The position numbers were made by a program, and so were the translations under genes. Positions 5,116-42,546 of a DNA stretch of 64,000 bases are shown here, piece by piece. Below the pieces are notes generated by a model. That model made no database searches. It was given only the letters and a program-made list of their open reading frames with translations, and was not told the DNA's origin. How positions within the stretch are numbered: position 1 is the first letter of the stretch; each line of letters starts with the position of its first letter. Origin of the DNA: Thermoplasmata archaeon (GTDB lineage: Archaea > Thermoplasmatota > Thermoplasmata > Lutacidiplasmatales > UBA184); contig DASZAJ010000007.1 of NCBI GenBank assembly GCA_035945215.1, positions 7,264 through 71,263 of the forward strand. The letters are read 5' to 3'.

Positions 5116-5158
5116 TCGCCGCCCGATCGGGACGGTTCCGGGCATCCCCGACCCGGAT

Positions 5159-5767: not shown

Positions 5768-5901
5768 ACCGCTGCCGGGGGGATCGGAAGTTCGGGTCGC
5801 CCGTCCCACAGCCGGTCCACCTGGGCCGGGAAGCGCGCGGACCGAATATAACCGAATTCGCCATTGGGGGGTGGTTGGGGGCCCGCCGCCGATGGGTGGA
5901 C

Positions 5902-7167
5902 TCACCCCCTTCGACTGAGCGGGTAGCGAAGTATCGCCGCCACGCCGCCGAACGCCTTGGCGAGCATCTCCCCTTCTTCGCTCTCCGCCGAGACCATGCG
6001 GACCGCGGCGCCCGACCCGGTCGCCTGCCCATAGAGCTTCTCGACGTAGTCTTCGTTCGATGCCGTGCTCAGCGCGACCGCGTGGCAATTCGGACAGGGC
6101 TGTTCTCGCAGCGCATCGACCGCGTCATCGGTGACGATCCGGGTGAACCCCTGTCCGCAGTTCCCGCACGTCAGGCCCACGATGCGCCGCCGCAGCCCTT
6201 CCGACAAAAGGAGGGTCGCGACCGCCCCGGCTTCGAGCGATCGGGTCACGTCCCGCTCGCCATACGCCGCGAGGCCGCTCTCGGCCTTGCGGATCTCGAC
6301 GAGGAGCCGCTGGACGAGCTGTTTTTCCTCCGTCAGTTCGAGGCCGTGCAGCGTCTGGGTCGCCTTCTCGACGAGCTCCTTGAGCCCGTAATCGTCGGTG
6401 TACCCGACGTCGAAGAGGGGCTGGACCACCTTCTGCTGGAGTTCGTAATGCATGTAGGCCTCCTTGTAGAAGTACTCCTTCGTCGCCCCAGGCCCGCCGA
6501 TCAGGATCCCCTTCAGTTCCTCCTTCTTCGGGAGAAACAGCTCGTTGGCCATCTCCCCGCACTTGACGAAGAACTCGTGCGCCGCGTGCTCGATCATCCG
6601 CTCGAAGCGGTGGGCGGATTGCCCGCCGCGCCCGTGCTTGCTCGGCACCAGCGACTGGCGATTCCGAAGGACATCGATCCGCTTGCCCCGGAGGAAGCCG
6701 ATCGTGACCTCGGCGCGGTCCATGACGATAAGGCCCCAGATCTCGGGCTCGTGGACCATGGCGAGCAGCGGGTCGAGGAAGAAGGTCGAATCGCACCGGT
6801 ACAGGTACGTGTTGAGCGGTTCCGGCGGTTCCACGATGAAGGTGACCGACTCGGATTTGTCGGCGCCGACGGCTTTGCTCCCGACGAAGAACGCGACGCC
6901 GGTCGGGGGAGGTTCCTTGAACGCGCGTACCCGCCCCATCAGCGATTCGATCGCCCACATCACGTTCTTGCGGGTCGTCCGGCTCTTGATGTTCGAGCTC
7001 TGCGCGTATTCGTTCCGAAGGTACGACATCGCGTCGGAGATCTGCTTGCCCGGCGGGACGTACAGGGAGATGAGCTCGGTCGCCCGACCCTTCGCGGCGG
7101 CGATCTCCTCGAGCTTACGGCGGAACGAGTACCGTGCGAGCTGCGGGTCGGAGGGGGCGGCGCTCAC
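5902..7167 (-). CDS. prf1: peptide chain release factor aRF1
   Basis: 421 aa. The N-terminus (YSFRRKLEEIAAAKGRATELISLYVPPGKQISD), the NIKS motif (QSSNIKSRTT) and the GGQ motif (HGRGGQSAHRF) match aRF1/eRF1. Confidence 0.9.
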   Translation of the reverse strand: MSAAPSDPQLARYSFRRKLEEIAAAKGRATELISLYVPPGKQISDAMSYLRNEYAQSSNIKSRTTRKNVMWAIESLMGRVRAFKEPPPTGVAFFVGSKAVGADKSESVTFIVEPPEPLNTYLYRCDSTFFLDPLLAMVHEPEIWGLIVMDRAEVTIGFLRGKRIDVLRNRQSLVPSKHGRGGQSAHRFERMIEHAAHEFFVKCGEMANELFLPKKEELKGILIGGPGATKEYFYKEAYMHYELQQKVVQPLFDVGYTDDYGLKELVEKATQTLHGLELTEEKQLVQRLLVEIRKAESGLAAYGERDVTRSLEAGAVATLLLSEGLRRRIVGLTCGNCGQGFTRIVTDDAVDALREQPCPNCHAVALSTASNEDYVEKLYGQATGSGAAVRMVSAESEEGEMLAKAFGGVAAILRYPLSRRG

Positions 7168-7214
7168 AACGAGTCTCGCCGATCGCCCTGGTCAGGACGG
7201 GGGGGTCGGGGCGA

Positions 7215-7235
7215 GGGTCTCCCGAGGCGAGACCC
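7215..7235. other. perfect 7-bp hairpin (GGGTCTC-ccgaggc-GAGACCC) between trx and prf1
   Basis: It is an inverted repeat seen directly. It lies downstream of the thioredoxin gene and upstream of prf1 on the minus strand, so it is a possible terminator or RNA structure. Confidence 0.3.
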
Positions 7236-7253
7236 GTTCCCCGGGCGATACAG

Positions 7254-7568
7254 TCAGAGCAGCTTGCGAACGTGCTCGTCGATGACCTCTTCCGGATAGG
7301 CCCCGACGATGCGATCGACGAGCTTTCCTTCTTTGTAAAAGAGCAAGGTGGGGATGCTCATGATCCCCAATTGTCCGGCCTTTTCCCCGTGGTCGTCACT
7401 GTTGAGCTTGCCGAAGCTCACCTTGCCATGGTACCGTTCGGAGAGCCGCTCGACGATCGGAGAGACCATGCGGCAGGGGCCGCACCAAGGGGCCCAAACG
7501 TCGACCACCGCTGCGGGGCTCTTGGAGAGTCGGTCGAACCCGGCCCCGTCCAACTCCTCTACACCCAT
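7254..7568 (-). CDS. trxA: thioredoxin
   Basis: 104 aa with a WCGPC active site (VVDVWAPWCGPCRMVSP) and a thioredoxin-fold layout. Confidence 0.9.
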   Translation of the reverse strand: MGVEELDGAGFDRLSKSPAAVVDVWAPWCGPCRMVSPIVERLSERYHGKVSFGKLNSDDHGEKAGQLGIMSIPTLLFYKEGKLVDRIVGAYPEEVIDEHVRKLL

Positions 7569-7708
7569 TTTGCGCCCTCGGTACGCTTCGAAGTTTTCGC
7601 CGGTATTAAACGGTCGCGGGCGACGGAGCCGTCGATTCTCCGGATCGCACGGTTCCGGGCCGCGCGCGCGAGAGTCGGGTATTTCTAATCCGACGCCCTA
7701 CCCCGGAC

Positions 7709-8533
7709 GTGGCGCGTTCTTCTGATTTGATGGTCCCACCTGACACCGCCCCGCTTACCCTGCCCGCCGGATCCTCGGTGCCCTCGGCCTCCCGTCCGGG
7801 CCGGACCCCGAACTTGGTCACCCCGGCCGTACGACGGGCGATCCTGCACCGGATGCTGATGTTCCGGCAAGCCTCCCTCGACCGGGTCGCGGCGATGACG
7901 GGAGCCTCGCCAGAGGCGCTGCGAGGCTTCCGTCAGGAGCTCTCGCATAGCGACCTTCCGGAGCGGCTCCTGCAACGGGGCGCGGGTCTCGCGTTCACGC
8001 GAGAGCTCCCGCAGGCGGGACTACTATACCTGCTCCTCCGCACGTTGCGCCCCCGTCGGATCGTCGAGACCGGTGTCCGGCCCGGATACTCGACGGCTTG
8101 GATGCTGGCGGCGCTCGAGCAGAACCGTCAGGGCGAGCTCTTTTCGATCGGTCCGGGCACCGTGGCCGGTCGGGCGGCAGGCGTGCCCATGGGTAGCGTA
8201 GGGGAGCTGGTCCCACCGCCGCTGCGGGCGCGTTGGACCCTGGTCCTCGGGAACTCGCAAGACCGGCTCGAAGAGGTGCTCGCCAAGGCCGGTCCCATCG
8301 ACCTGTTCTTCTCGGACAACGGACCCGACCTCGACCGCGCGCAGTGGGAGCTTCGTCGGGCTTGGAGTGCGATGGCCCCCGGCGGGGTCGTGGTGGCCCA
8401 TCACGTGGACGCGAATCCGGCGTGGGCCGAGTTCTGCCGCTGGCAGGGGTTGCCCACCCAGGTCCTCGATCCCGGCCCGCCCCCGATGGGGGCGCTGTCG
8501 GTCCGGACCGACCCTCGATCGCGATCGATCTAA
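7709..8533 (+). CDS. class I SAM-dependent (O-)methyltransferase
   Basis: It has the motifs IVETGVRPGYSTAWML, LVLGNSQDRL and DLFFSDNGPD. The true start may be downstream, at the internal MLMFRQ. Confidence 0.6.
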   Translation: MARSSDLMVPPDTAPLTLPAGSSVPSASRPGRTPNLVTPAVRRAILHRMLMFRQASLDRVAAMTGASPEALRGFRQELSHSDLPERLLQRGAGLAFTRELPQAGLLYLLLRTLRPRRIVETGVRPGYSTAWMLAALEQNRQGELFSIGPGTVAGRAAGVPMGSVGELVPPPLRARWTLVLGNSQDRLEEVLAKAGPIDLFFSDNGPDLDRAQWELRRAWSAMAPGGVVVAHHVDANPAWAEFCRWQGLPTQVLDPGPPPMGALSVRTDPRSRSI

Positions 8534-11022: not shown

Positions 11023-11439
11023 TCACGGATCGAATGCCGGCCGCGCCGGGGTCCGATGGGATCGCAGAGCGCCCCACCCTGCCGTCAGGGTCCCCAAGAT
11101 CAGGTAGACAACAGCGAGCGTGGCGGACGCACCGGGAAGATAGAGCAGGGATCGGTTCGCGGCGAAGAGCACGAAACCCGCGAGGATCATTGAGGCGGGT
11201 ACCAACCACATCCCGATCGCGAAGTAGGCGATGGCTCCCCCGACGATGAACGTCACGGCCAGCAAGAACGCGAGGTCCAACGCCTCGGATCGGTGGCCCT
11301 CGGCCAGGATCAGCAATCCCCCGGCGACGATCGCCGCCGCTCCGACGATCAGCGGGAGGGCGACCGACCGATCGTACAGCACGATCGCCGTCGCCCGATC
11401 ATCCTCCCCACCCGGCGGTGGACCGATCGATTCGCTCAT
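11023..11439 (-). CDS. small membrane protein (4 predicted TM helices)
   Basis: 138 aa with hydrophobic helices LPLIVGAAAIVAGGLLIL, LAFLLAVTFIVGGAIAYFAIGMWLV, ILAGFVLFAA and TLAVVYLILGTLTAGW. Confidence 0.55.
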   Translation of the reverse strand: MSESIGPPPGGEDDRATAIVLYDRSVALPLIVGAAAIVAGGLLILAEGHRSEALDLAFLLAVTFIVGGAIAYFAIGMWLVPASMILAGFVLFAANRSLLYLPGASATLAVVYLILGTLTAGWGALRSHRTPARPAFDP

Positions 11440-11471
11440 TCGGACCGGACCGCACCGTCGGACGATTCTTT

Positions 11472-12296
11472 ATGCTACTCGGGGTTCGCCGCGACGGTAG
11501 GAAAGAGATGCGAGAGCTCCTGGCCCACGTCCAGTTCCGCGGCATCATACGGGAGCGGTCCGTGGAGCCGTTCCTCGCCCTTCTGCGGACCCTCCGGGAA
11601 AGGCGTCGGGTCCGGGGGGTTCTCCTCGACATCTCGAGCGGGGGCGGGGGCGACATTCCGTCGACCGACCTGCACCTGGCGATCAAGCGACTGGACGCGG
11701 TGAAGCCCGTCGTCGCGAGCATCGGCTCGATCGGGGCCTCCGGCGCCTATATGGCGGCCCTGGGCGCCCGGAAGCTGTTTGCCTATCCGGACTCGGCCGT
11801 CGGATCGATCGGTGTCGTGGTCCCACACGTCGCCGTCCAGAAGCTCCTCGACAAGCTCGGCATCCAAGTGGACCTGCTCCACGAGGGCCGCCACAAGGAT
11901 GCCTATCAGGGGCTTCGACCGCTCTCCGAGGAGGAGCGGGCGAAACTGCAGGCGGTGGCCCACGATTCATACGAGTCGTTCGTGGCGATGGTCGCGCGGG
12001 AGCGACATCGGCCGTTGGACGAGATCCGCGCGCTGGCGACCGGGGAGTTTTGGAGTGGCACGCGGGCACTCGAGCTCGGCCTGATCGACGCCCTCGGCGA
12101 TCGCGAAACCGCCCTCGAGGAACTCGCCCGTATGACCTCGGTCCCCGCTCGGAAGACCCTCCGAGTGGCTCCGCCGCGACCGTTCCTCGAGCGCTTCTTC
12201 CAAAGCGGCCTGTCGCTTGCGCCCGGGCTGGTCGTTGGGCTCCGGGACGCCATCGAGGATTCGATACTCGAGCTGAGCGGGCCGGGGCGCCTGTAG
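11472..12296 (+). CDS. sppA: signal peptide peptidase SppA (S49 family)
   Basis: Features: GVLLDISSGGGGDIPSTDL, VVASIGSIGASGAYMAALGARKLFAYPDSAVGSIGVV and a Ser/Lys dyad region. The start is either ATG 11472 or ATG 11508. Confidence 0.8.
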   Translation: MLLGVRRDGRKEMRELLAHVQFRGIIRERSVEPFLALLRTLRERRRVRGVLLDISSGGGGDIPSTDLHLAIKRLDAVKPVVASIGSIGASGAYMAALGARKLFAYPDSAVGSIGVVVPHVAVQKLLDKLGIQVDLLHEGRHKDAYQGLRPLSEEERAKLQAVAHDSYESFVAMVARERHRPLDEIRALATGEFWSGTRALELGLIDALGDRETALEELARMTSVPARKTLRVAPPRPFLERFFQSGLSLAPGLVVGLRDAIEDSILELSGPGRL

Positions 12297-12310
12297 CGCC
12301 CGTCCGCATC

Positions 12311-12319
12311 GATAAATAG
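12311..12319 (+). promoter_or_regulatory. TATA-like box (gataaatag) about 29 nt upstream of the Sec61-beta ATG
   Basis: It is an AT-rich octamer in an otherwise GC-rich spacer. The spacing fits a leaderless archaeal transcript. Confidence 0.4.
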
Positions 12320-12343
12320 CCCGGCGGGGCTGCTGGATCGGCG

Positions 12344-12505
12344 ATGCCCGACAGCAGCAAACGCGGATTCTCCTCCGCGGCCGGACTCATCCAGTATTAC
12401 GACATGGAAGAGTCTCGGGCGCTCAAGATCGACCCGTACATCGTGATCATCCTCGGCCTCGGGGCTGCCGTGGTCGTAGAGATCCTCAGCTGGAAGGTCG
12501 TCTGA
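12344..12505 (+). CDS. preprotein translocase subunit Sec61-beta (SecG-type), unannotated small ORF
   Basis: Hand translation gives MPDSSKRGFSSAAGLIQYYDMEESRALKIDPYIVIILGLGAAVVVEILSWKVV (53 aa). It has the conserved GLIRYY-like motif and a single C-terminal TM. It falls below the 60-aa cutoff of the ORF track. Confidence 0.75.
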   Translation: MPDSSKRGFSSAAGLIQYYDMEESRALKIDPYIVIILGLGAAVVVEILSWKVV

Positions 12506-12509
12506 TCCC

Positions 12510-12920
12510 TCACTCGCCGAGAACCTTCACGATCACCCGCTTCCGGCGCTGGCCGTCGAATTCGGCGTAGAAGACCTGCTCCCACGGCCCGAGGTCCAGC
12601 CGGCCCTGGGTCACCGGGAGGACGACTTGGTGGCCCAGCAGGAGGTTCTTCAGGTGGGCGTCGCCATTCGATTCGCCCGTGCGGTGGTGGGCGTAGTCCA
12701 TTTCCGGGACCAAACGTGCGGCCCAGCGCTCGATGTCCTCGAGGAGACCCGCCTCGTTATCGTTCACGTAGACGGCCGCGGTGATGTGCATCGCCGAGAC
12801 CAGGCAGAGACCCTCCCGGATGCCACTTCTTTCGACGATGTCGGCGACGGCATTCGTGAGGTTGACGAACCCCCGGTGGCCGGGGGTGTGCATCCACAGG
12901 TACTCGGTCGCCGCCTTCAT
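12510..12920 (-). CDS. YjbQ/UPF0047 family (secondary thiamine-phosphate synthase-like) protein
   Basis: 136 aa. The regions [36 protein letters not shown] and [15 protein letters not shown] match the YjbQ family. Confidence 0.8.
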
Positions 12921-12932
12921 CGCGGTCGGCGG

Positions 12933-13898
12933 TCAGGCGATCCCCTCGATCGGGGTGGGACCCAGGCCCGGCAGATACCGGTCCTCGTCCGGCCGGCCGA
13001 GGAGCAGCACTTTCGACTCGGGGGACTCATCGAGCACCGTGAGGCCGGTCTGGCGGGCGAGCGCCCGCGCGAATCCGGCGATCTCGGCATGCTCGGGCAC
13101 GTGGGCCCGACCCAGCCGCTGGCGGGACTTACCCATGTACACGTATCCTTTCGGCTCGATGAAGTTCGGGCGGGCCCGCTCATCCAGCGCGGCATACTGG
13201 TCGACCCAACCAAGGTTCCAGCCCCGCACCAAGGTGTGGCGAACGACCCGACGCGTTCGCAACCCGCGAACGATCTCCAGGGATTCGAGCAGCCGCTCCC
13301 AAGCGTCCGGTTGGGCCGGCATGGTCAATCGCCGAAAGACCTCGGGATTCGGGGCAGTTACCGACACGTAGAGTTGGGTCGGCAGAGGGTCCATATGCCG
13401 GAGGGCGTCCGGATTCGTCCCGTTGGTCACCAGGAAGGTGGTGATCCCCCGCGCCTCGCAAAGGCTGAGGAATCGGTTCATCTTCGGGTACAACGTGGGT
13501 TCCCCCGTCAGGGAGATCGCCACGTGGCGGGGGGACTGGGACGCCTCCCACCGATCGCGCGGGATCGTCGGATCGCCTTTGAAGCCGGAGAGGATCCTCT
13601 GTTGCGCCTCGATCGACCGGTCCAGAAGGGTCTCCGGATCGTCGAATTCCGGCATCAATTCGTCGTTCTCCCAGCCCTGGTTCCGCCAGCAGAACCGGCA
13701 ATGCAAATTGCACGAGTCGATCGCCGGCGACATCTGGAGGCACCGATGGCTTTCGATCCCGTAGAAGCGTCCCTTGTAGCAGTCCCGACCTTTCGTCAAC
13801 GACTGTCGGGTCCAATAGCATAACTTGACGGCGCTGTGCCGACCGACCAGCTGATAGCCTTGGCCGACAAGTTCCCCGGCCAGGTCCTGGTCCCCCAT
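12933..13898 (-). CDS. taw1: tRNA 4-demethylwyosine synthase (Taw1/TYW1), radical SAM
   Basis: The N-terminus reads HSAVKLCYWTRQSL. The radical-SAM Cys motif is CNLHCRFCWR. 321 aa is the archaeal Taw1 length. Confidence 0.85.
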   Translation of the reverse strand: MGDQDLAGELVGQGYQLVGRHSAVKLCYWTRQSLTKGRDCYKGRFYGIESHRCLQMSPAIDSCNLHCRFCWRNQGWENDELMPEFDDPETLLDRSIEAQQRILSGFKGDPTIPRDRWEASQSPRHVAISLTGEPTLYPKMNRFLSLCEARGITTFLVTNGTNPDALRHMDPLPTQLYVSVTAPNPEVFRRLTMPAQPDAWERLLESLEIVRGLRTRRVVRHTLVRGWNLGWVDQYAALDERARPNFIEPKGYVYMGKSRQRLGRAHVPEHAEIAGFARALARQTGLTVLDESPESKVLLLGRPDEDRYLPGLGPTPIEGIA

Positions 13899-14090
13899 GC
13901 CCAGCGGGACCTCTATCGACCGGCCCTTATCCTCCTTTGGACCCCGCCCAATCGGGACCCCGACCCGCCATCCCCTCGACGGCGACCGATGCGGGCCGGA
14001 CTTCGACGGCGACGCGATAGCCGAGCGCGCGGGCCCGGCTCCGGGGGGCGGCCATCGTTATCCCCGTCCGTTCTAGTCGACCGATCCGGC

Positions 14091-14414
14091 ATGGTCGAGC
14101 AACTGCGTCCGGAGGATGTCGCTCGTCGACTCTCCGAGCATCCCGAGGGGATCGTTCTGCTCGACGTGCGCGAGGATTGGGAGAGGACCACGGCGCGGAT
14201 CGAACCCTCCCTGCACATTCCCATGCAACAGGTCCCCGATCGCTTGGGCGAACTGCCCAAGCGGGGGCTGATCGTGGTGTATTGCCATTCCGGCGTCCGT
14301 TCGGCGATGGTGGCGGCGTACCTCGCTGGCCACGGGTTCCGCTCCGTGGCCAACCTCTCGGGGGGAATCGACGCCTGGTCCACGGAGCTGGACGCGACCA
14401 TCCCGCGATACTAG
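14091..14414 (+). CDS. rhodanese-domain sulfurtransferase (single domain)
   Basis: The catalytic loop is VVYCHSGVRSAMVAAYL. There is an ATG at 14091. The upstream in-frame extension is Pro/Arg-rich and unlikely to be coding. Confidence 0.75.
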   Translation: MVEQLRPEDVARRLSEHPEGIVLLDVREDWERTTARIEPSLHIPMQQVPDRLGELPKRGLIVVYCHSGVRSAMVAAYLAGHGFRSVANLSGGIDAWSTELDATIPRY

Positions 14415-19972: not shown

Positions 19973-20113
19973 TCAATCGTACCTGGGATCGGCGTCCATC
20001 CGCGTCGCCGGGTGGCCGCACTTCGGGCACTCGACGACCCTCCAATCCGGCGGGACCGGGACCAGGGCACCGCAGGCCTCGCAGCGGACCTCGGAGGCCT
20101 CCGGCTCGGGCAT
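19973..20113 (-). CDS. small zinc-ribbon protein
   Basis: MPEPEASEVRCEACGALVPVPPDWRVVECPKCGHPATRMDADPRYD has two CxxC pairs. It lies divergently upstream of GGR. The longer 89-aa form carries a Pro/Arg-rich N-terminus of doubtful coding value. Confidence 0.45.
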   Translation of the reverse strand: MPEPEASEVRCEACGALVPVPPDWRVVECPKCGHPATRMDADPRYD

Positions 20114-20318
20114 CGTCTCCTCGGGGATGGACAGGCCCGGCTTCGTAAGACGTTGCCCGGGAGGGGTCTTCCCCACCGAAACGGGGGCGAACCTTCCGGG
20201 GCGGTACCGAGGCGTACGAGGCGAAGCGCCCGTCGGGGGCAAGTACCCGCAGGGTCGACCTTCCCGTCGGGCGCCGTCGGCCCACTCCTAATGAGGTGGT
20301 CACGCCGTCCCCACGCCG

Positions 20319-21569: not shown

Positions 21570-22297
21570 CCGCCGGCCGCGGCCAGGGCCAGGCTCGCGC
21601 CTAGGACCCCGTATAACACCGTCGGGGTCCCGTTCGATCGGATCAGGATCGCGGTCTCCGGGAGTACTCCCGAGACCCCGAGCCGGCTCGCGTTGACGGT
21701 CGGCGTACCGTTGGCGAGTTCGGTCCCGTTCGCCCAGACGGCCGCGGAGAAGTAGCCCCGGGAGGCCAGGTGGAACGACTGGGCGCCTTCCTGGAAGGTG
21801 AGCTCGGCCCGGATGGCGAACGTCCCGGACGGCGCCGACGCGGGGATGGAGAAGGGAAGCGATAGGTTGCCCGGCGCCCCGAACGATCCCGACGCGGCGA
21901 GGCGAGCGATCGGTACCACGACCGCGGATCCGTTCGCCCCCAAACCCGAGAACACCGGCGAACCCCCGGCCGGAAGGCCCGAGGTCGAACCGCCGGGGTA
22001 GGCCGAGAAGGCGTACAACTCGAAGGTGAGTGAGATCGACGTGATCGAGCCGGCCAGGGTGTCGGTCAAGAGGAAGGATAACGCCCCGCTGCCTCCCGGG
22101 GCCAGCGCCGGCGCGGCGAGGCCGGAGAGCAATCCGTCCGAGATCCCGACGGGCAGGACCGGCGGGGCGGCCGCGCCCGCCGTGGCGGGCATGGCGAGGC
22201 CGACCAAGAGTCCGACCAGGAGCAGTACAATGAACGATATGCGGGGTCGCCTACCCACCCCACGCCTCCGGCTCCTGTCGAGCCTCGGCCATCGCAA
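21458..22297 (-). CDS. secreted/membrane-anchored glycoprotein (signal peptide, C-terminal TM)
   Basis: The signal peptide is RRPRISFIVLLLVGLLVGLAMPATAGAAAPP. There are sequons NGS, NLS, NGT and NAS. The C-terminal TM helix is VLYGVLGASLALAAAGGYVSY, followed by a basic tail. The 3' end overlaps the GGR 3' end convergently. Confidence 0.55.
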   Translation of the reverse strand: MRWPRLDRSRRRGVGRRPRISFIVLLLVGLLVGLAMPATAGAAAPPVLPVGISDGLLSGLAAPALAPGGSGALSFLLTDTLAGSITSISLTFELYAFSAYPGGSTSGLPAGGSPVFSGLGANGSAVVVPIARLAASGSFGAPGNLSLPFSIPASAPSGTFAIRAELTFQEGAQSFHLASRGYFSAAVWANGTELANGTPTVNASRLGVSGVLPETAILIRSNGTPTVLYGVLGASLALAAAGGYVSYRRGPGSRSRKWTPGDPTSAPKAFGKSRIKDGD

Positions 22298-23162
22298 CGA
22301 GCCGCCGGATCCGGGCGATCGCCTGGGGGTGGCCGGCCGACCCCCGGGTCCCCAGGAACCCGACGGCCCAGAACCGACGGGGCACCGGCGCCCCGGCGAT
22401 CGCCTTGTAGAGCGCCCGGGCCAGCGCGAGGGGGAGGCCGGTCGCCCGGACCGCGTCGTCGTCGGCTCGGAACTCCTCGCGGTCCGTCAACCGAGCGGCG
22501 ATGAACGCCATGAGCGGGTCCCAGCGCATCATCCTCGACAGGGTCCGAAGGTAGGTCAGATACCGGCCGTCGAGGCCCCGCAGATGGCCTACCTCATGCG
22601 CCACCACCGCGGCGACCTCGGGTTCCGAAAGCAATTCGACCAATCCTCCGGAGAGGATGATCACCTCCAACCGGTGCGGATGCCATCGTCCCCCCGCGAA
22701 GGAGAGCAGGGTGAACGAGAACGCCTCCCGCTCCAGGGACCGGGATTGAAGGAGCTGGACCGGAAAGGCGGGCCAAGCGAGCCCCCGGGGCCACGGCATC
22801 TCCGAAGGGTTGAGCAGACGGAGCGTTCCCCGGCCGACCGCCTGGTTCAGCAGGAAGGCCACCAGCAGGATCGTGAACGCCCCGAGCGCTCCCTCGGCCC
22901 ACATCGATGGATCCGAGAGGATCGTGGCCGCGAGCAGGCTTGGGGGGGTGTGGGAGATCCGAACGAGGCCCATCCATCCGCCGTTTTCGAGGACCCAAAC
23001 GAGAAATGTCGTGGCGAGCAGCGACCATAGCGCGAGGAACGCGGACGCCAAGCGAAGGACCGTCGTGGGCGCGGATTTCCGGAACGCGTAGACGAGGCCG
23101 GCGCCCGAGGCGACCCAGACGACGACCGGGGCGTACAGTACGAGGGCGAGCAGGGCCAACAC
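22251..23162 (-). CDS. M56/M48-family membrane metalloprotease (BlaR1-like peptidase domain, no sensor domain)
   Basis: It has 4 N-terminal TM helices. The HExxH motif is VVAHEVGHLRG, and the downstream Glu is in EEFRADDDAV. This topology and motif spacing match BlaR1/HtpX-type peptidases. Confidence 0.7.
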   Translation of the reverse strand: MLALLALVLYAPVVVWVASGAGLVYAFRKSAPTTVLRLASAFLALWSLLATTFLVWVLENGGWMGLVRISHTPPSLLAATILSDPSMWAEGALGAFTILLVAFLLNQAVGRGTLRLLNPSEMPWPRGLAWPAFPVQLLQSRSLEREAFSFTLLSFAGGRWHPHRLEVIILSGGLVELLSEPEVAAVVAHEVGHLRGLDGRYLTYLRTLSRMMRWDPLMAFIAARLTDREEFRADDDAVRATGLPLALARALYKAIAGAPVPRRFWAVGFLGTRGSAGHPQAIARIRRLVAMAEARQEPEAWGG

Positions 23163-26222: not shown

Positions 26223-27671
26223 ATGCGGCGGTTCACGGTCTACGATTCGTTGAGCCGGGAGACCCGGCTGTTCGTGCCGATCACGCCCCCCAAGGTGGGC
26301 CTGTTCGTCTGCGGCCTCACCCCGTACGACGATGCGCACATCGGCCACGGTCGGACGGCCGTCGTCTTCGACGTCGTCGCGCGGGCCCTCACCCGCTGGG
26401 GGTACCGGGTGTTCTACATCCAGAACGTGACCAACCTCGACGACCGCTTGATCGCCCGCGGCGCCGAGTCGGGGATCGACCCGATGCGGCTCGCCGACCG
26501 GCACTTCCTCGCCTGGCGGATCGCGATGGAGGCGCTGGCGGTGCGCTCGGTGAACTTCTACCCCCACGCGACCGACTACCTGCCCGAGATCATCGAACAG
26601 ATCCGCGCCTTGGTCGACAAGGGGTTCGCCTACGCCTCCGCGGGCTCGGTGTACTACGAGGCGGCCCGGTTCCCCGAGTACGGGAAGCTGTCGGGCCAAC
26701 GGCTCGATCAGACCAAGCCGGGGACCCGGGTCGAGGCCGAGCCGGGCAAACGCGCCCCCGAGGACTTCGTGCTCTGGAAGGCCGCTCGGCCGGGGGAGCC
26801 CACGTGGGACTCCCCGTGGGGTCCGGGCCGCCCGGGCTGGCACATCGAAGATACGGCGATCACGGGTCGCATCCTCGGCCCTCGCTACGACCTGCATGGG
26901 GGCGGGGTCGACCTGAAGTTCCCGCACCACGAGGCGGAGATCGCGCAGGCCGAGGCCGCGTCGGGGGAGGCCCCCCTCGTCCGGGCCTGGATGCACGCCG
27001 GGATGCTGCAGATGCGCGGCGAGAAGATGTCGAAATCCCTTGGGAACGTGATCCCGCTCCAGACGGCGCTCGAGCAGTTCGGCGCGATGGTGCTGAGATT
27101 CTACTACCTTAATGCCCAATACCGCAGCCCGCTGAACTTCGTGGACGGGGAGAGCCTACCGGAAGCTCGGGAGGCCTACGAGCGTCTCGTGGGCCCTTTC
27201 CTGCGGTTGAGCCGGGTGTTCGACCGAGTCGGCCCGGACGGTCCGGGTCGAGAGCTGCCGGCCGATATCCTCGCCGCATCGAGCACCCTGGTCGACCAGT
27301 TGGATACTACACTGGCCGAGGATTTCGCGACGCGCGAGGTGCTCGCGGCGCTGTTCGGATGGTCGCGAACGGTGCAGGAGTGGGCCCCCCATTTCGAGTC
27401 GCTCACCGGCAGCTCCCTCGCCGCTCTCGGCGCCCCGTACCGGTGGGGCCGCGAGGTGCTCGGCCTGTTCGAGACCCCGACCGATTCGAACGATGCGCAG
27501 ACGTTGGGTCCGGTGGTCGCGGTCGCCTTGGAGGCGCGTCGGCGGGCGCGGGATCGAGGGGACTACGAGGAGGCCGATCGGATCCGCGACGCGCTCAAGT
27601 CGGCCGGGATCGTCGTGGAGGACGACGGGACCCGGACGCGCTGGGAACGGGCCCCGGGGGCGCTTCCCTGA
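26223..27671 (+). CDS. cysS: cysteinyl-tRNA synthetase
   Basis: The HIGH motif is [20 protein letters not shown] is present, and FPHHE and a Zn-binding Cys are also seen. 482 aa. Confidence 0.9.
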
Positions 27672-28708
27672 ACGGATTCGGCTTTCAGGAGCACGGAGGG
27701 CTCGAAGGGACGGGCTTCGTCTCCATCCCGGAGCCGGTCCCCGGGCCGGGCGAGATCCGCGTTCGGATCCGTGCGGCCGCGTTCAACCACCTCGATCAGT
27801 TCACCCTTCAAGGAATTCCCGGCGTGTCGATCGAACGGCCCCACGTTCTGGGGTCCGATGGGGCCGGGGTGATCGATCGCCTCGGGCCCGGGCTCGACGG
27901 CCCCCCCGTGGGGACCGCCGTCCTGCTGAACCCCGGGATCTGGGACGGGACGTGCGAGGCTTGCCGAAGGGGCCAGGAGTCGTACTGCCGCGCCTATCGG
28001 ATCCTCGGGGAGCATACGCAAGGCACTGCCACTGAGCTCGTGGTCGTGCCCGCCCGCAACGTCCACCCCATCCCGGCGGGACTTTCCTTCGAACAGGCGG
28101 CCTCGGTGCCCTTGGTCTTCCAGACGGCTTGGCGGGCGCTTTGTACCGTGGGCCAGCTTTCGGCCGGTGAGACCTGCGCGATCATCGGGGCGGGGGGAGG
28201 GGTGGCGACCGCGGCGGTTCAGATCGCCCAGCGTTCCGGGGCCCGGGTGGTCGTGGCGGCCCGTTCGGATCGCCATGCCGAACGGGTTCGGGCCCTCGGC
28301 GCGGAAGAACTGCTCGTCTTCAGCCCCGAAGTTCCTCTCGACCGCCTCCTTTGGCAGTGGAGCGGCAAGCGAGGGGTCGACGTGATCTTCGACTCGGTCG
28401 GCCAGCCCACCGTCCCGCGATCGGTTCAAGCCCTTGCCCGGGGGGGCCGGCTGGTGGTCATCGGGGCAACCGCCGGCCCCAAGGTCGAGATCGATCTTCG
28501 CACCCTGTTCTGGCGCCAAGCCTCCATCCGGGGCAGCACGATGGCCGATCCCCGGGAGTTCGCTCAGGTGCTCGAGCAGATCGCCCTGGGCTCGCTCCAT
28601 CCCGTCATCGATTCGACGTACCCGTTCGAGCGCGCCCGGGAGGCGTTCGAGCGGTCCTGCGCGCCGGGCCTGTTCGGAAAGGTCGTGGTCAGCGCCCCGG
28701 TCCCGTGA
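27668..28708 (+). CDS. zinc-type alcohol dehydrogenase / quinone oxidoreductase (MDR superfamily); start uncertain (no ATG)
   Basis: Motifs: GPGEIRVRIRAAAFNHLD, the GSDGAGV catalytic region, GETCAIIGAGGGVATAAVQIA (Rossmann) and C-x2-C-x2-C (CEACRRGQESYC). It follows the cysS stop directly. CTG 27668 is only a guess for the start. Confidence 0.7.
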   Translation: MNGFGFQEHGGLEGTGFVSIPEPVPGPGEIRVRIRAAAFNHLDQFTLQGIPGVSIERPHVLGSDGAGVIDRLGPGLDGPPVGTAVLLNPGIWDGTCEACRRGQESYCRAYRILGEHTQGTATELVVVPARNVHPIPAGLSFEQAASVPLVFQTAWRALCTVGQLSAGETCAIIGAGGGVATAAVQIAQRSGARVVVAARSDRHAERVRALGAEELLVFSPEVPLDRLLWQWSGKRGVDVIFDSVGQPTVPRSVQALARGGRLVVIGATAGPKVEIDLRTLFWRQASIRGSTMADPREFAQVLEQIALGSLHPVIDSTYPFERAREAFERSCAPGLFGKVVVSAPVP

Positions 28709-28763
28709 GGGGAACTCGGCGCACCCGGAACGGTACGAACTCTCGAGATTGGCGCGGCCATCA

Positions 28764-28772
28764 TTTTTATAC
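28764..28772 (+). promoter_or_regulatory. TATA box (TTTTTATAC) about 27 nt upstream of the GTG start of the giant surface-protein gene
   Basis: It is a clear AT-rich box in a GC-rich spacer, and the spacing suits a leaderless transcript. Confidence 0.5.
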
Positions 28773-28794
28773 CGGGACCACACCATTTGCGAAC

Positions 28795-31700
28795 GTGAAC
28801 CGCTCTCATGGCAACCCTTGGGCCCCCCAAGGCGATGGGAACCGCCGCGAACGATCCCCCCATGTGTTTCTGCTCGGTCTGCTCCTCCTGATCACCGTAC
28901 TCGGGGCCCTCACGGTCCTGGGGGCGGGCCGGACCATCGCGATCGCCCCCTCCCACCTGGCCGCGCCTTCGTCCCCCGCCCATCCGACGCCCATGGCGAC
29001 GACCCAGTACGGGGGGGACCTCACCGTGCCCTCCGGGGTCAACCTGACCTTGGGACCGGCGACCGGTCGGCTGACGTACTACGAGGGGGGCAACCTCACC
29101 GTCGCCGCCGGCGGGACCCTGAATGTCCGCAATACCACGATCGTCTTCGTCGAATTCATCGGCAACGGAGGCTCCGTGGCGAGCCAGCTCTCCCACATCT
29201 ACCACCTCCTCGACGCCGGCACGATGGTCCTGACCAACTCGTCGATCACCACCCTCGTGACCCAGATCGATCCCTATCCGATCCTCACCGTGACCATCAC
29301 CGGATCGTTCCAGATGACCAACGGAGCGCTCGCCTTCCCCGGGTCGATCACCGTCAACGGGAGCTCGGCGAGCCTCTGGCTTTCCCATAGCACGGTCGGA
29401 CGCAATCCCGCGACGAGCGCCCTCGTGGGCAACGCGAGTTCGAACTCGTCCACGCCCGCCTCGAAGGCGTTCGGGGCCGACGTCGCGTACGCGCCGGTCC
29501 TCAGCGTGATCGGGGGGGGCCAGGCCACCTTCCTCGCCTCGTTGCTGAACAACTCCTTCCGAGACCCGCTGAACGGGTCGACTCTGCCCGGGGTCCCCCC
29601 GAGCACCGCCAGTCCAACGCCCGGTAACGCTGTACTGGGGGGCACCGCGCCCGCCCCGCTCGTCCTGCCGCCCCCGGGTAACTCCTCGGACGCGCTCGCG
29701 CTCGCGGCGGCCTACCCTACGGTCGCCTCCGGTAGCCTGAGCATCTCGTACAACTCCACCGCGGCTTCCACCACGTCCAACTCCCGGATCGTGATCGGCC
29801 CGAACTCCTGGACTTTCAGCCCGATCCACTTCGCGGCCTCGACCGGCACCACCAGCGTGGATGCGCCGGTCCCGGCGGCGGCGATCGCGTCGATCGACCA
29901 GGGGGGGGTCCCCGCCTTCCTCGCCGCCCTGGGATCGGGCCAGGTCGCGATCGCCTTCGGAACCGCGTCGACCCCCACCACGATCCACTCCGTGACCCTG
30001 AGCTTCGTCGCCCCGTGGAGCTTCAACCTGACCGTCTCGGGTTCGGGGAGCACCCTGACCGCCGCGGACACCACGTTCGATGAGAACTGGAACGCGACCC
30101 CGGGGCTGCCCGGCACCCTCCCCTACGTACCCTGGCATTCGAACAAAATCGTGCTCACGGGCGGCGCCCGGGCGTTCCTCGCCAACGTTTCGGTACCCCC
30201 CGCCGCGCCCGTCAACTTCGCCCACCAGTCCTTCGTCGTCCCCGACGCCACGAGCTCGGCGGCGTTCTACCGGTGGCTCAACGTTCCGGTCCGCGGCGCC
30301 CAGGGGATCATCGTCCAGGGGGCGACGGTCCAGGCCCCCTACGCTTATTCGGGCGCCACGAGCGAGAATGCGACCGTCTCCGCGCTCAACGGGCTCTCCA
30401 CGGCCGACCCGAGCCTCGCCGCCTACGTGGCGGCCTGGGACCGGGCCGCGGGCGTGGCGAACTACGGCGAGGTCGATGCCTCGGGGAACGCGAGCCTCCT
30501 GCTCGCCTCCGACCAGCTTACGAATGCCTCCTTGCCCGACGGGAACTTCCTGGGCAGCTACCACGTCGGCGTCACGGCCAACCCGGGGAGCCAGGGGATC
30601 ACCCAATGGTTCTACGCGTCGCTCCCGGCGTACCCTTCCGAGATGCAGCCGACGGGGCCGAACGCCACGGGGCCAATTCCCACGTCCTACGTGATCTTCC
30701 CGCAGTACCGCGTGTCGGTAATCGCGGGTTCCCCGACGTTCGCCATCGGCGCCACGCCCGTCACGAACGGATCGACCGCCATCGGCGAGAACCTGAGCGT
30801 GATCGAGAACGTCCAGAGCACCGGCACCGGGACCGTGTCGAGCTTCACGGCGACGCTCTTGCTCTCGGCGGCGGGCAAGCCCCCCGTGCAGATCGGCCGC
30901 CCACAGGTCTACGGTCCCCTGGCGCCCGGGGCGAGCCACCCGGTCCGCTTCGACTGGATCGTCAACGGGAGCCTTGTTGGGTACGCGACCGGCGGGGTCC
31001 TGAGCACTTTCACCGTCGTCATCAATTGGAGCCCCGGGGCCGGCGCGGCGAGCGCCGCGCAGAGTCTGACGATCTATCCCCCGTACATCGCCTTCAGCAC
31101 GACGGGCCCCTCGGGGACGCTTACGATCGGCAATAGCTACCTATTGCACGCCTTTGTGAGCTACGCCGGGAACGGCTCGGCGCAGCTCAACATCACGGCG
31201 CGTTCCTCGACGGGCGGATTCCTGCAGATCGCCAGCGGTCGGGTCATTTCGGGCGGGGAGACGAACGTCAGCGTCCTCATCGAGAGCTCCGCCGTGCCGG
31301 GGACGTATACCCTCTACGCGAGCGTCTTCCACGACGGTCGGACCGTTCACTACAACGTCACGAACGCCTTCATCATCCCGTCGACGGCGCCCCCGACCAC
31401 GACGCCCTGGTACGACCAATCGTTCCTCGGCCTTGCGCTGTGGCTGTGGCTCGTGATCGCCGCCGCCATCGCCGCGGGGATCGTCTTGTTCCTGTTCGTG
31501 TCGGTCCAGAAGGCCAAGGGCAAGGTCGTCGAGTGCGGCGAGTGCGGGGCGATGATCCCGGAGACCGCCGTCGCCTGCCCCGAGTGCGGCGCCGAGTTCG
31601 AGTCGGACCGAGTCCGCTGCAGCCGATGCGGATCGACGATCCCGGGCAACTCGGCGGTCTGCCCGGAGTGCGCCGCAACGCTGTTGGGCCGCGCCGGCGA

Positions 31701-32145
31701 GGAGAAGGACGATCCGGAGCGGCAGGGCTACGCTGACTTCGTCGAGCGGTTCCGGGCCGAGGGCCGCAAGGCGCTGGGCGACAGCTATTCCGAGAGCGCC
31801 TTCTGGGACTGGTGGAAGCGCCAGTCGACGTACGTTCCGTTCGGCCAGTGGAAGATGCAGCAGGCCCAAGGCTCCCGGGCCGGCATGAGCGCGCCCCGGG
31901 AGACCGCTACGAAGGAGGAGACCCCGCCGCCGGGTCGGGGCACCCCGCCCCGTCGTCCTCCCGCGGCGCGCCCGCCGCCCGCCGCAGCCCCCGCGCGCCC
32001 GGCGACCCCGCCGCCCGCGGCCGTCGAGCCGGCGGCCCCGGCGGCGGCCCCCGCCGATAGCGGGATGATCACCTGTTCGAACTGTCACAAGGAGATCCCC
32101 GCGACCTATCTGGTCTGTCCGTTCTGCGGGGCGGTCACCCAATAG
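28795..32145 (+). CDS. giant membrane-anchored surface glycoprotein with beta-helix-like repeats and three cytoplasmic zinc ribbons
   Basis: I place the start at in-frame GTG 28795, which gives a signal peptide (VNRSHGNPWAPQGDGNRRERSPH-VFLLGLLLLITVLGALTVLGAGRTIAIA). About 900 aa are Thr/Ser/Asn/Gly-rich, with tens of NxS/T sequons and repeated G-N-LT-V motifs. A single TM helix follows (LALWLWLVIAAAIAAGIVLFLFV). The cytoplasmic tail has three zinc ribbons (CGECG...CPECG; CSRCG...CPEC; CSNCH...CPFCG) and a Pro/Ala-rich linker. The track ORF start at 28351 would overlap the upstream ADH. Confidence 0.7.
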   Translation: MNRSHGNPWAPQGDGNRRERSPHVFLLGLLLLITVLGALTVLGAGRTIAIAPSHLAAPSSPAHPTPMATTQYGGDLTVPSGVNLTLGPATGRLTYYEGGNLTVAAGGTLNVRNTTIVFVEFIGNGGSVASQLSHIYHLLDAGTMVLTNSSITTLVTQIDPYPILTVTITGSFQMTNGALAFPGSITVNGSSASLWLSHSTVGRNPATSALVGNASSNSSTPASKAFGADVAYAPVLSVIGGGQATFLASLLNNSFRDPLNGSTLPGVPPSTASPTPGNAVLGGTAPAPLVLPPPGNSSDALALAAAYPTVASGSLSISYNSTAASTTSNSRIVIGPNSWTFSPIHFAASTGTTSVDAPVPAAAIASIDQGGVPAFLAALGSGQVAIAFGTASTPTTIHSVTLSFVAPWSFNLTVSGSGSTLTAADTTFDENWNATPGLPGTLPYVPWHSNKIVLTGGARAFLANVSVPPAAPVNFAHQSFVVPDATSSAAFYRWLNVPVRGAQGIIVQGATVQAPYAYSGATSENATVSALNGLSTADPSLAAYVAAWDRAAGVANYGEVDASGNASLLLASDQLTNASLPDGNFLGSYHVGVTANPGSQGITQWFYASLPAYPSEMQPTGPNATGPIPTSYVIFPQYRVSVIAGSPTFAIGATPVTNGSTAIGENLSVIENVQSTGTGTVSSFTATLLLSAAGKPPVQIGRPQVYGPLAPGASHPVRFDWIVNGSLVGYATGGVLSTFTVVINWSPGAGAASAAQSLTIYPPYIAFSTTGPSGTLTIGNSYLLHAFVSYAGNGSAQLNITARSSTGGFLQIASGRVISGGETNVSVLIESSAVPGTYTLYASVFHDGRTVHYNVTNAFIIPSTAPPTTTPWYDQSFLGLALWLWLVIAAAIAAGIVLFLFVSVQKAKGKVVECGECGAMIPETAVACPECGAEFESDRVRCSRCGSTIPGNSAVCPECAATLLGRAGEEKDDPERQGYADFVERFRAEGRKALGDSYSESAFWDWWKRQSTYVPFGQWKMQQAQGSRAGMSAPRETATKEETPPPGRGTPPRRPPAARPPPAAAPARPATPPPAAVEPAAPAAAPADSGMITCSNCHKEIPATYLVCPFCGAVTQ

Positions 32146-41481: not shown

Positions 41482-42546
41482 ATGCTCGCGGCCCCGTCGA
41501 TGGCCCCGGGAGGGTGGAAACAGTTCGGAACCCGCCGGATCGGGCGAGCGGTCCTGATGGCTGTGGCCATCTTGACCCTGGTCGGGAGCCTCGTCTACCT
41601 CGGCCCGTATGTGGCGATCGCGGTCCTGTTGCTGTTCGGGGCCGCCGTACCGATCTATCTCGGCTGGAAGCGGCCCCGCCAGCTCGCCATCGCCGGCCTG
41701 GCGGTTCTCCTGATCAGTGCCCCGATCTTTTCGGTCATCTACGCGAATGAACTGCGCCTTCCGAGCCCGTCGGCGAGTTCGAACCCGGCGAGCCCGTACG
41801 GCAACGGCGGGGCCGTCATCCAGGACGCGAAGGTGACCCCGTTCGACGGGGCCCAGGGGGGGACCTACAATTTCAGCGCCTCGATCGACCCGCAGTACCT
41901 GCCCCAAAGAGAGCAGGCCCGCTTCTTGACGCTGTACATCTCCGACTGCCCCGGGGCCACCGGGAATCGATCGCCCAATTGTCCGTCGGGGTATGCCTTC
42001 TTCGAGCTCAATCACACCTTCGCGTCGAATCTCTCCACCGCGTCGACGGTAACCTTCGCCCGATCGCTGCCCGGGGCCGACATCTGGTGGTGGAACCTCG
42101 CGCTCGCGATATCGAACAGCTCGTCACCGAAGAACCTCACGTGGGTCTGGCTCTACACCAACGGGAGCTACTCGGGGGTGGAAGGGCCGGTCTCCGGCGA
42201 TTTCCTATCGACCACGGAGCTCATCCTGCCCGCGGCGTACGAGGTGATCTTCATCTATCCGGGCCTCGTCTTTTTCATCGGCATTCTCGTCTACGTCCTG
42301 CTGAAGAACCGCGAGAGCGCTCGGAGGGCCCGAGCCCCGGGCTCCCTACCGCCTTCCGGGGGGACGGCCGAGCCACCTTCCGGGACCACCGAGAAGACGA
42401 TGCCGACCCCGGCAGGAAAGCAGGAGAGCGCCTGCCCGAACTGCGGCGCCGTCGTCTACCCAAATGAGCGAGCGTGCTGGAAGTGTGGCAAGAGCCTGGT
42501 CGTTCCGGTGGCCGCCGCCAACGAGCCGCTTGCGTCGACGAAGTGA
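41482..42546 (+). CDS. polytopic membrane glycoprotein with C-terminal cytoplasmic zinc ribbon
   Basis: It has N-terminal TM helices, an extracellular segment with sequons NFS, NRS, NHT, NLS, NSS, NLT and NGS, a further TM helix (VIFIYPGLVFFIGILVYVLL), and then CPNCGAVVYPNERACWKCG. Confidence 0.6.
   Translation: MLAAPSMAPGGWKQFGTRRIGRAVLMAVAILTLVGSLVYLGPYVAIAVLLLFGAAVPIYLGWKRPRQLAIAGLAVLLISAPIFSVIYANELRLPSPSASSNPASPYGNGGAVIQDAKVTPFDGAQGGTYNFSASIDPQYLPQREQARFLTLYISDCPGATGNRSPNCPSGYAFFELNHTFASNLSTASTVTFARSLPGADIWWWNLALAISNSSSPKNLTWVWLYTNGSYSGVEGPVSGDFLSTTELILPAAYEVIFIYPGLVFFIGILVYVLLKNRESARRARAPGSLPPSGGTAEPPSGTTEKTMPTPAGKQESACPNCGAVVYPNERACWKCGKSLVVPVAAANEPLASTK

Follow-up and report, generated by a model that had tools for sequence, protein, structure and literature searches.

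The window analysed here is a stretch of 64,000 nucleotides (nt) from contig DASZAJ010000007.1 of a Thermoplasmata archaeon of the order Lutacidiplasmatales, and the subject is a giant gene on its forward strand, which encodes a protein of 1116 amino acids (aa) with a large predicted ectodomain, one transmembrane (TM) helix and a cysteine-rich tail. The gene is a single unbroken open reading frame (ORF; 28795-32145, +) that begins with an in-frame GTG at 28795 and ends with a TAG stop codon at 32143-32145. An earlier note on this DNA had proposed a giant protein of about 1116 aa over 28764-32145; the uninterrupted ORF bears this out and the end of that span is correct, but its start is not, since 28764 marks the TATA box and the coding sequence (CDS) begins at 28795. 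The neighbouring ORFs likewise confirm the position that had been given for the gene, between cysS and an ADH gene upstream and ahcY downstream, where gcvH is also found. Intergenic gaps are short on both sides, the ADH-like gene ending at 28708 and ahcY starting at 32215. The features of the gene and its promoter are the following.

28765-28772 (+): TATA box TTTTTATA, the gene's own promoter, read directly, with a TATA-like element in all 8 loci compared
28773-28794 (+): TATA-to-start spacer of 22 nt, with an A/T patch, ATTT, at 28785-28788, about 10 nt before the GTG, from cross-locus comparison
28795-32145 (+): CDS of the 1116-aa protein, from ORF reading, full-length orthologues and a ratio of nonsynonymous to synonymous substitution (dN/dS) of 0.12
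28795-28929 (+): N-terminal export/anchor segment, from hydropathy, a basic n-region at aa 1-23 (...GNRRERSPH) followed by hydrophobic aa 24-45
29011-29559 (+): predicted N-terminal beta-solenoid (beta-helix-like) domain, aa 73-255, from the AF2 model and homology to the N-termini of the relatives P0072 and P0010
29560-30744 (+): central ectodomain, aa 256-650, of mixed alpha/beta structure, which evolves fastest (AF2 pLDDT 30-85; dN/dS 0.16)
30745-31404 (+): predicted membrane-proximal immunoglobulin (Ig)-like beta-sandwich domains, divergent and CARDB-like, aa 651-870, from AF2 strands, Foldseek and a weak CARDB match
31426-31509 (+): TM helix, aa 878-905, from hydropathy, with an FLGLxLW interface motif before it and a basic juxtamembrane KAKGK after it
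31528-31674 (+): double zinc ribbon, aa 912-960, with four CxxC, starting about 8 residues past the TM helix (Pfam DZR; AF2 ~80)
31708-31884 (+): three-helix domain, aa 972-1030 (DPERQGYADFVERFR...FWDWWKRQ..Y.PF.QW), of no described family, from AF2 and conservation
31885-32064 (+): Pro/Ala-rich disordered linker, aa 1031-1090 (pLDDT <50; TRF arrays)
32065-32142 (+): C-terminal third zinc ribbon, aa 1091-1116 (ITCSNCHKEIPATYLVCPFCGAVTQ-COOH), conserved through its final residue (Pfam, AF2)

Integrity, promoter and order-wide position of the gene

The whole architecture is common to nine full-length-type homologues of 945-1116 aa (37-96% identity), which possess 12-13 Cys and 20-32 N-x-S/T sequons apiece; close orthologues of 1092-1116 aa are built in the same way. 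Compared with the homologue from L092 (96% identical), dN/dS is 0.12 for the whole gene, 0.13 for the ectodomain, 0.16 for its central part (aa 256-650) and 0.027 for the TM helix together with the core of the tail. These values fall inside the range of the neighbouring enzymes (0.03-0.27), and positive selection on the ectodomain was not seen at this short range. The giant gene is real, intact and under purifying selection in all its regions. Overlapping long ORFs are encountered in other frames, for example an antisense ORF of 791 aa (28564-30939); these are shadow ORFs, usual in GC-rich DNA. The GC content of the window is ~70%, matching the ~69% of Lutacidiplasmatales (PMC9287336).

Databases also contain entries of 170-360 aa that look like free tails and are named 'zinc ribbon domain-containing proteins'. 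Two of these were checked on long contigs (P0016, 331 aa; P0019, 241 aa), and both proved to be pieces of the full gene, cut by frameshifts and occupying the usual slot. On the long-read contigs L008 (6333-9996) and L009 (6359-9726), which belong to metagenome-assembled genomes (MAGs), frameshifts break the gene into 3-4 called pieces, and in this way produce database entries that resemble free zinc-ribbon proteins of 170-360 aa. The lesson for annotation is that at least some short 'zinc ribbon domain' entries are pieces of the giant gene. A frameshift or assembly error behind the fusion had been named beforehand as what would refute the architecture. The architecture survives this check: it is continuous in independent assemblies and species, and fusion or frameshift as its origin is ruled out by the orthologues of the same layout and by the two checked entries being fragments.

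A TATA box belonging to the gene itself and a leaderless start at GTG had also been proposed, and both are supported, for in 8/8 loci compared an in-frame GTG is located 30-32 nt past the first base of the TATA-like box. Some loci had been called with an ATG further downstream; in these, too, the conserved GTG is in frame, and a start there gives the hydrophobic stretch a basic n-region in front. Between the TATA box and the GTG, a single position differs among the window and the loci L001 and L002; ahead of the box their DNA is unrelated, and the proteins of these species with near-identical spacers are just 65-69% identical. More distant loci retain a CCAxxTTTC-like A/T patch ~10 nt ahead of the GTG. 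This pattern suggests that the promoter is constrained, hence strong or regulated, and the spacer at 28773-28794 may be a proximal promoter element or an operator.

Gene order was compared on seven contigs with homologues down to 37% identity. The longer ones show CBS (PALP+CBS), cystathionine lyase (Cys_Met_Meta_PP), cysS, ADH, the giant gene, ahcY and gcvH, and the part of this order covered by the shorter ones matches. A scan with the tail profile over one genome per GTDB species gave 317 relatives, and the locus statistics in this text refer to the best 80 of the 317. All 80 are from Thermoplasmata MAGs, mostly from acid soils and peat, and include Candidatus Lutacidiplasma silvani and Lutacidiplasmatales. 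The giant gene is present in all of them, at one copy per locus (a count per locus, not per genome), in a fixed slot and with a near-constant length of ~1100 aa. Downstream, ahcY follows on the same strand in 51 of the 52 loci with enough downstream DNA and is immediately adjacent in 48; upstream, the ADH gene is found in 60 of the 64 loci with enough upstream DNA. The gene had been described as inserted, or wedged, into a sulfur-amino-acid block, and comparative genomics had been proposed as a check for a strain-specific insertion. Neither description can be kept, as the same slot is occupied in essentially all species-representative genomes of the clade, and an insertion or mobile-element reading is rejected by the synteny with ahcY and ADH. 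Rather than a recent insertion, the giant gene is fixed throughout the order.

The surrounding ~19 kb are collinear in relatives and also include a BlaI-like/M48 pair, 3HCDH-ECH, PPDK and Trm5/TYW2; as these genes are unrelated, the linkage to the sulfur-amino-acid genes is not specific. A functional tie to those genes is further disfavoured by relatives elsewhere in Thermoplasmata, which stand in unrelated contexts. Outside the clade, P0072, which has the same tail and is 31% identical in the N-terminal ectodomain (547 aa aligned), is located between an aldehyde dehydrogenase/aminotransferase pair and a sugar epimerase/dehydratase, and P0010 is located near a Pilin_N gene. On contig L091, P0072, which is widely sampled and listed in 108 blocks of the sequence collection, has an epimerase/GDP-mannose-dehydratase-type gene on one side and a DegT-type aminotransferase with an aldehyde dehydrogenase on the other (regions 12034-13233 and 5076-7754), a sugar-nucleotide context that might be related to glycosylation of the protein. 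At the locus L003, a 923-aa fn3-domain protein (11332-14103, -), possibly a second surface protein, is encoded between the giant gene and ahcY on the opposite strand; an extra gene in this position is also found in L016, L022 and L031.

Ectodomain, membrane helix and zinc-ribbon tail

Hydropathy identifies two hydrophobic segments only, at ~aa 24-45 and aa 878-905, and basic residues flank both on the cytoplasmic side. Across orthologues the N-terminal segment keeps its hydrophobicity but not its sequence, and the distant homologue P0010 possesses a classic signal-peptide-like N-terminus that ends in ARA-G. The ectodomain (aa 61-878) is composed of 13% Ala, 11.7% Ser, 10.9% Thr, 10.5% Gly and 5.5% Asn; it contains 5.7% charged residues (K 0.4%) and no Cys, compared with ~24% charged residues in the tail (aa 906-1116). 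The dense N-x-S/T sequons that had been read from the protein are confirmed, with 26 in the ectodomain against 9.3 +/- 2.7 expected (2000 shuffles, none of which reached 26). Their density is 32 per 1000 aa, compared with 0-7.6 (about 2) in seven cytoplasmic neighbours, and the tail is without any sequon. Eight sequons recur in five or more of the 7 orthologues, N113 and N525 in all of them. The ectodomain is probably N-glycosylated at many of the 26 sequons, and its paucity of charge would fit an acidic exterior. Taken together, hydropathy, composition and the Pfam ribbon matches bear out the layout first proposed, an export segment followed by a Thr/Ser/Asn-rich ectodomain, one TM helix and a cytoplasmic tail with three ribbons.

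The ectodomain can be divided into three parts. The first (aa 73-255) is homologous to the N-termini of P0072 and P0010, and the AF2 model shows there ~five three-strand rungs at aa 76-202, with strands of 3-6 residues (pLDDT ~70-89); a Pfam scan of the protein gave no match to a beta-helix family. The second, central part contains a better-defined alpha/beta region at aa 310-430, and the alignment with P0072 extends as far as ~aa 590. In the third, beta-sandwich strands are modelled at aa 660-860 (pLDDT 60-75), and CARDB (PF07705) scores 12.4 bits at ~aa 655-724 (E = 0.19), below its cut-off of 22.7; CARDB matches are found in 3/9 orthologues, with a best E of 2.7e-5. Searches of the ectodomain sequence against Pfam, NCBIfam and PDB gave nothing beyond this sub-threshold match. 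Structure prediction thus retains the proposed beta-helix rungs for ~aa 73-255 and not across the whole ectodomain, whose membrane-proximal part is Ig/CARDB-like. The earlier note's '~900 aa of repeats' are not found: self-BLAST of the protein is without an off-diagonal match, and TRF places low-complexity arrays of the DNA in the Pro/Ala linker only (31944-32056), so that internal repeats are rejected by both methods. The ectodomain is best taken as a new, divergent member of the familiar archaeal beta-helix/CARDB-type surface glycoproteins.

All 12 Cys of the protein sit in the 211-aa tail, in six CxxC pairs that make up three ribbons with a spacer of 10 in each (C914/917-C928/931, C942/945-C956/959 and C1094/1097-C1108/1111). 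The three ribbons and the Pro/Ala linker had been proposed before, and Pfam places the ribbons above cut-off both as Zn_Ribbon_1 (PF13240; 45.8 bits, cut-off 25; three stretches, the best at aa 1094-1113) and as DZR (PF12773; 36.7 bits, cut-off 27.3; aa 914-959). NCBIfam and PDB sequence searches of the protein add nothing to these ribbon matches. The 12 Cys are invariant in orthologues, and several blocks of the tail are near-invariant: GK(V/L)VECGECGxxIPE, CPxCGAEFE, RCSRCxSTIP, CPECAAxLLG, DPERQxYxDF, FWDWWKRQxxYxxFxQW and CxxCGKEIPxxYLVCPFCGAVTQ-COOH. The linker is variable among orthologues in both length and sequence. The AF2 model of the tail (20-sequence alignment) has a mean pLDDT of 74, distributed as ~80 for the membrane-proximal ribbons, 92-97 for the three-helix domain (aa 974-1027) and ~94 for the last ribbon, with the linker disordered. 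The F and W residues of the three-helix domain are invariant or nearly so in 32 diverse members. This domain gave no match in Pfam, NCBIfam, PDB sequences or Foldseek, and a profile of the domain only (A4) returned nothing from PDB sequences and NCBIfam. An archaeosortase signal of the PGF-CTERM type is not indicated, the TM helix being trailed by 211 residues and no NCBIfam sorting-signal model matching.

In the 80 loci the tail core has a median identity to the window protein of 72%, the ectodomain one of 34%; the corresponding values of the neighbours are 73% for AhcY, 72% for cystathionine lyase, 65% for ADH and 63% for CysS. The tail core is as conserved as housekeeping enzymes. A profile of this core (A3) was searched against 1.84 billion representative proteins; E <= 1e-30 was reached by 210 clusters and E <= 1e-10 by 393. 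The match is located near the C-terminus, usually 200-250 aa from the end, of proteins mostly 900-3800 aa long. A TM helix is found directly ahead of the tail in 96% of 181 members, a further CxxC...CxxC ribbon after the tail core in 84% of members of at least 900 aa, and a G-x-P-x-W interface motif at a fixed 33 aa before VECGECG in 50/159 members. The window protein possesses all five elements of the family in order (TM helix, DZR, three-helix domain, linker and zinc ribbon), a combination that appears undescribed; literature searches found no description of the family or of the tail.

Named members of this family are all from MAGs labelled Thermoplasmata, Thermoplasmatota, Methanomassiliicoccales or unclassified Methanobacteriota, and a homologue search with the helical-domain profile gave short unnamed fragments only and identified no cultured carrier. 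Five distant members were scanned for domains: four contain 3-6 CARDB stretches, some together with MG2 or CarboxypepD_reg, and the fifth (P0072) has zinc-ribbon matches only. Some members are named subtilases by JGI. The relatives P0004, P0011, P0028, P0086 and P0089 carry JGI names such as 'RNA polymerase subunit RPABC4/transcription elongation factor Spt4' and 'ribosomal protein L40E'. Scores of the RPABC4, Spt4 and L40E families are far below cut-offs, and such names on giant membrane proteins appear to be mis-annotations caused by generic zinc-ribbon similarity.

Proposed function and rival explanations

On balance, the protein is probably a membrane-anchored cell-envelope glycoprotein, in a high-GC archaeon of the Lutacidiplasmatales (TMEG) type, whose tail docks a conserved cytoplasmic partner. 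The gene's own TATA promoter would give rise to a leaderless mRNA that starts at the GTG, as the comparison of loci supports, and the N-terminal hydrophobic segment would direct export through Sec. The ectodomain of ~800 aa would then lie outside the cell, N-glycosylated at many sequons, as a beta-solenoid cap, a variable middle and an Ig/CARDB-like stalk. The single TM helix would serve as the membrane anchor, the protein being either single-pass or anchored at both its N- and C-terminal segments. The 211-aa tail would be cytoplasmic, bind three Zn ions and act as a docking module, with the double ribbon at the membrane, the rigid three-helix domain next and the last ribbon on a flexible tether of ~60 aa, elements that together may hold either a cytoplasmic partner that is itself conserved or the tails of adjacent molecules. 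A coupling of the protein, through its tail, to a cytoplasmic component was already suggested in the earlier note and is supported by the difference in median identity between tail core and ectodomain. The fixed slot, the single copy per locus, the near-constant length, the constrained promoter, the few charges and the sequon load all fit an envelope building block, and the features of an S-layer-type protein, namely an N-terminal export segment, a sequon-rich ectodomain and a C-terminal TM anchor, are predicted to be present. That the protein is a main component of the outer protein coat, whether this resembles an S-layer or the 'exterior protein layer' without a lattice known from Thermoplasmatales, is a further, tentative idea, which we consider conceivable rather than probable.

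Several points weigh against the envelope-glycoprotein interpretation. Searches of Pfam, NCBIfam and PDB revealed no sequence similarity to any known S-layer family. The full-length AF2 model (9-sequence alignment) is of moderate quality, with a mean pLDDT of 59, and its Foldseek comparison with the PDB gave generic tandem Ig-like folds only (macroglobulin MG domains, FnIII, transglutaminase barrels, RbmA and arrestin-like proteins), at TM-scores of ~0.1. The tail model has no significant Foldseek neighbour (best E = 0.12), only isolated small ribbons being aligned, and zinc binding by the three ribbons is predicted from the CxxC pattern and the Pfam matches only. Lutacidiplasmatales are moreover uncultured, with no cultured member (PMC9287336).

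Comparison with known systems gives partial likenesses. The archaeal S-layer glycoproteins (Haloferax/Halobacterium; Sulfolobus SlaA) are likewise large, secreted and sequon-dense, as is the window protein with 26 sequons in ~820 aa; SlaA is reported to have 31 predicted N-glycosylation sites in its mature form (PMC2948927). Their ectodomain is likewise beta-rich and Ig-like, a character that in the present protein comes from the AF2 model. In the haloarchaeal S-layer glycoprotein a C-terminal hydrophobic segment serves as the anchor, as is predicted here. The S-layer glycoproteins differ, however, in possessing a short basic stub or a PGF-CTERM signal in place of the 211-aa three-ribbon tail, and the S-layer families lack sequence similarity to the window protein. 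CARDB surface proteins (PF07705) are represented by the 3-6 CARDB stretches of distant tail-family members and, weakly, by the window protein (12.4 vs 22.7 bits); the Pfam model spans the extracellular domain only and includes no conserved cytoplasmic tail. DZR is matched by the first two ribbons of the tail and Zn_Ribbon_1 by all three, but these models are generic and do not cover the three-helix domain, the fixed TM-adjacent position or the tethered third ribbon.

The only functional precedent found for an archaeal zinc ribbon tethered at the membrane is CdpC of Haloferax volcanii, a membrane anchor of the FtsZ1 ring whose C-terminal zinc ribbon, on a disordered linker of 243 aa, binds FtsZ1; remote relatives with several zinc ribbons are reported in the same study from every class of Thermoplasmatota (bioRxiv 10.64898/2026.07.16.738847). 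CdpC resembles the present tail in its membrane-proximal ribbon, long disordered linker and C-terminal ribbon, a resemblance taken here as an analogy of design. It differs in being a cytoplasmic protein of 346 aa that is attached by an amphipathic helix, possesses no ectodomain or TM helix and has an N-terminal ribbon of the C3H type. By this analogy the binding partner of the tethered ribbon could be a protein of the cytoskeleton or of cell division, corresponding to FtsZ1 for CdpC, a suggestion that we rate as rather unlikely. For the exterior, Thermoplasmatales without an S-layer (Cuniculiplasma, Oxyplasma) are covered by a dense, non-lattice 'exterior protein layer' ~20 nm thick, the component proteins of which have not been identified (PMC12448462). 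This layer consists of non-crystalline, membrane-associated surface proteins in a related order of the same class, and may be a candidate parallel for the window protein.

Four other explanations were weighed against the envelope glycoprotein with a docking tail. The protein could be a transmembrane sensor, the ectodomain of which detects a cue such as a surface, a polymer or a virus while the tail sequesters or releases a cytoplasmic regulator (a transcription factor or a polymerase-associated protein), in the manner of zinc-binding anti-sigma factors or membrane-tethered regulators. The much stronger conservation of the tail than of the ectodomain, the JGI names after RPABC4/Spt4 or L40E ribbons, and a conserved promoter spacer sufficient for an operator would all agree with this, as would the fact that zinc ribbons are common protein- and nucleic-acid-binding modules. 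Yet the names reflect generic ribbon similarity with scores far below cut-offs, Pfam and NCBIfam searches revealed no recognisable signalling or DNA-binding domain, and the same tail is carried by very different ectodomains (900-3800 aa, CARDB arrays, subtilase-named), a variety easier to reconcile with a module for anchoring or docking than with a sensor specific to one ligand; we regard a sensor as unlikely. Equally unlikely is a cell-tethered adhesin or extracellular enzyme, for example a beta-helix protein that binds or cleaves polysaccharides, used for attachment to soil polymers or for their degradation, with a tail that serves only for membrane retention or clustering. The beta-solenoid fold, modelled here for the N-terminal domain, is common in glycan-binding proteins, lyases and adhesins, and distant members contain CARDB, MG2 and CarboxypepD_reg or are named subtilases. 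Lutacidiplasmatales are also predicted to be organoheterotrophs with extracellular peptidases (PMC9287336). Against this, the protein matches no catalytic or carbohydrate-binding family, its single copy per locus, fixed slot and length of ~1100 aa in the best 80 loci point more to a core structural component than to an accessory hydrolase, and the tail, at a dN/dS of 0.027 the most constrained part, would be left unexplained.

Coupling to the neighbouring sulfur-amino-acid genes (CBS, cystathionine lyase, cysS and ahcY), for instance as a sensor or an uptake accessory, would read the synteny as co-function. It can draw on the conserved slot (ahcY in 51/52 and ADH in 60/64 loci) and is nevertheless highly improbable: the collinear ~19 kb include the unrelated PPDK, Trm5/TYW2 and BlaI/M48 pair, the giant gene has its own promoter, another gene intervenes before ahcY in some species, and homologues with the same tail and N-terminal ectodomain are found in unrelated contexts of other lineages. 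The probability of an artefact is negligible, whether a surface-protein gene had been joined to a separate zinc-ribbon gene by a frameshift or in assembly, or GC-rich DNA had produced a spurious ORF. Long shadow ORFs are indeed common in a window of 70% GC (the 791-aa antisense ORF at 28564-30939 among them), and tail-only proteins of 170-360 aa stand in the databases; set against them are the same continuous architecture in independent assemblies and species, P0016 and P0019 as frameshift fragments in the same slot, and purifying selection across all regions.

An extension of the envelope-glycoprotein reading, for which we see a small chance only, is that the tail is a new transmembrane coupling device of wall-less or S-layer-less Thermoplasmata that ties coat glycoproteins to a cytoplasmic scaffold, which would make the window protein the first identified component of the 'exterior protein layer'. 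Contact would be made through the three-helix domain and the tethered terminal ribbon, and candidate scaffolds are FtsZ/division, ESCRT-like or other cytoskeletal proteins. If true, such a device would coordinate coat organisation, cell shape or division across the membrane, with the window protein as an order-wide core member. A tail that is shared by hundreds of giant proteins of the class and conserved at the level of housekeeping enzymes suggests a systematic link from the surface to the interior. To our knowledge, archaeal envelope proteins have not been described with a link of this kind, and literature searches found none. Most Thermoplasmata are uncultured, and for the uncultured orders no envelope data are known to us; the giant gene, conserved across its order, with its own conserved TATA promoter and a product predicted to be glycosylated, provides a concrete envelope candidate.

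Minor observations in the window and in relatives

Two further ribbon-like signals were encountered in the window. A 354-aa ORF (41482-42546, +) has a sub-threshold C-terminal zinc-ribbon/DZR match of ~19.7 bits at aa 315-339, and a weak ribbon-like tblastn match lies at 20015-20137 (-), in an ORF without a Pfam family.

At the junction of the cysS stop and the ADH start (window 27668-27671), relatives show a TTGA or GTGA overlap, and the window and L092 show CTGA. The homologous start of ADH in the window and L092 is a CTG, with no in-frame ATG, GTG or TTG within 27600-27800; ADH in the window either has a CTG start or translational coupling, or is a shorter protein. The gene caller used for L092 gave a shorter ADH product of 329 aa. 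Just upstream of the CBS gene and divergent from it, a pair consisting of a BlaI/Penicillinase_R-like repressor and an M48 (BlaR1-like) peptidase is conserved in the clade (window 22251-23162, -), and in relatives a small regulator gene stands beside it (L002 2309-2665).

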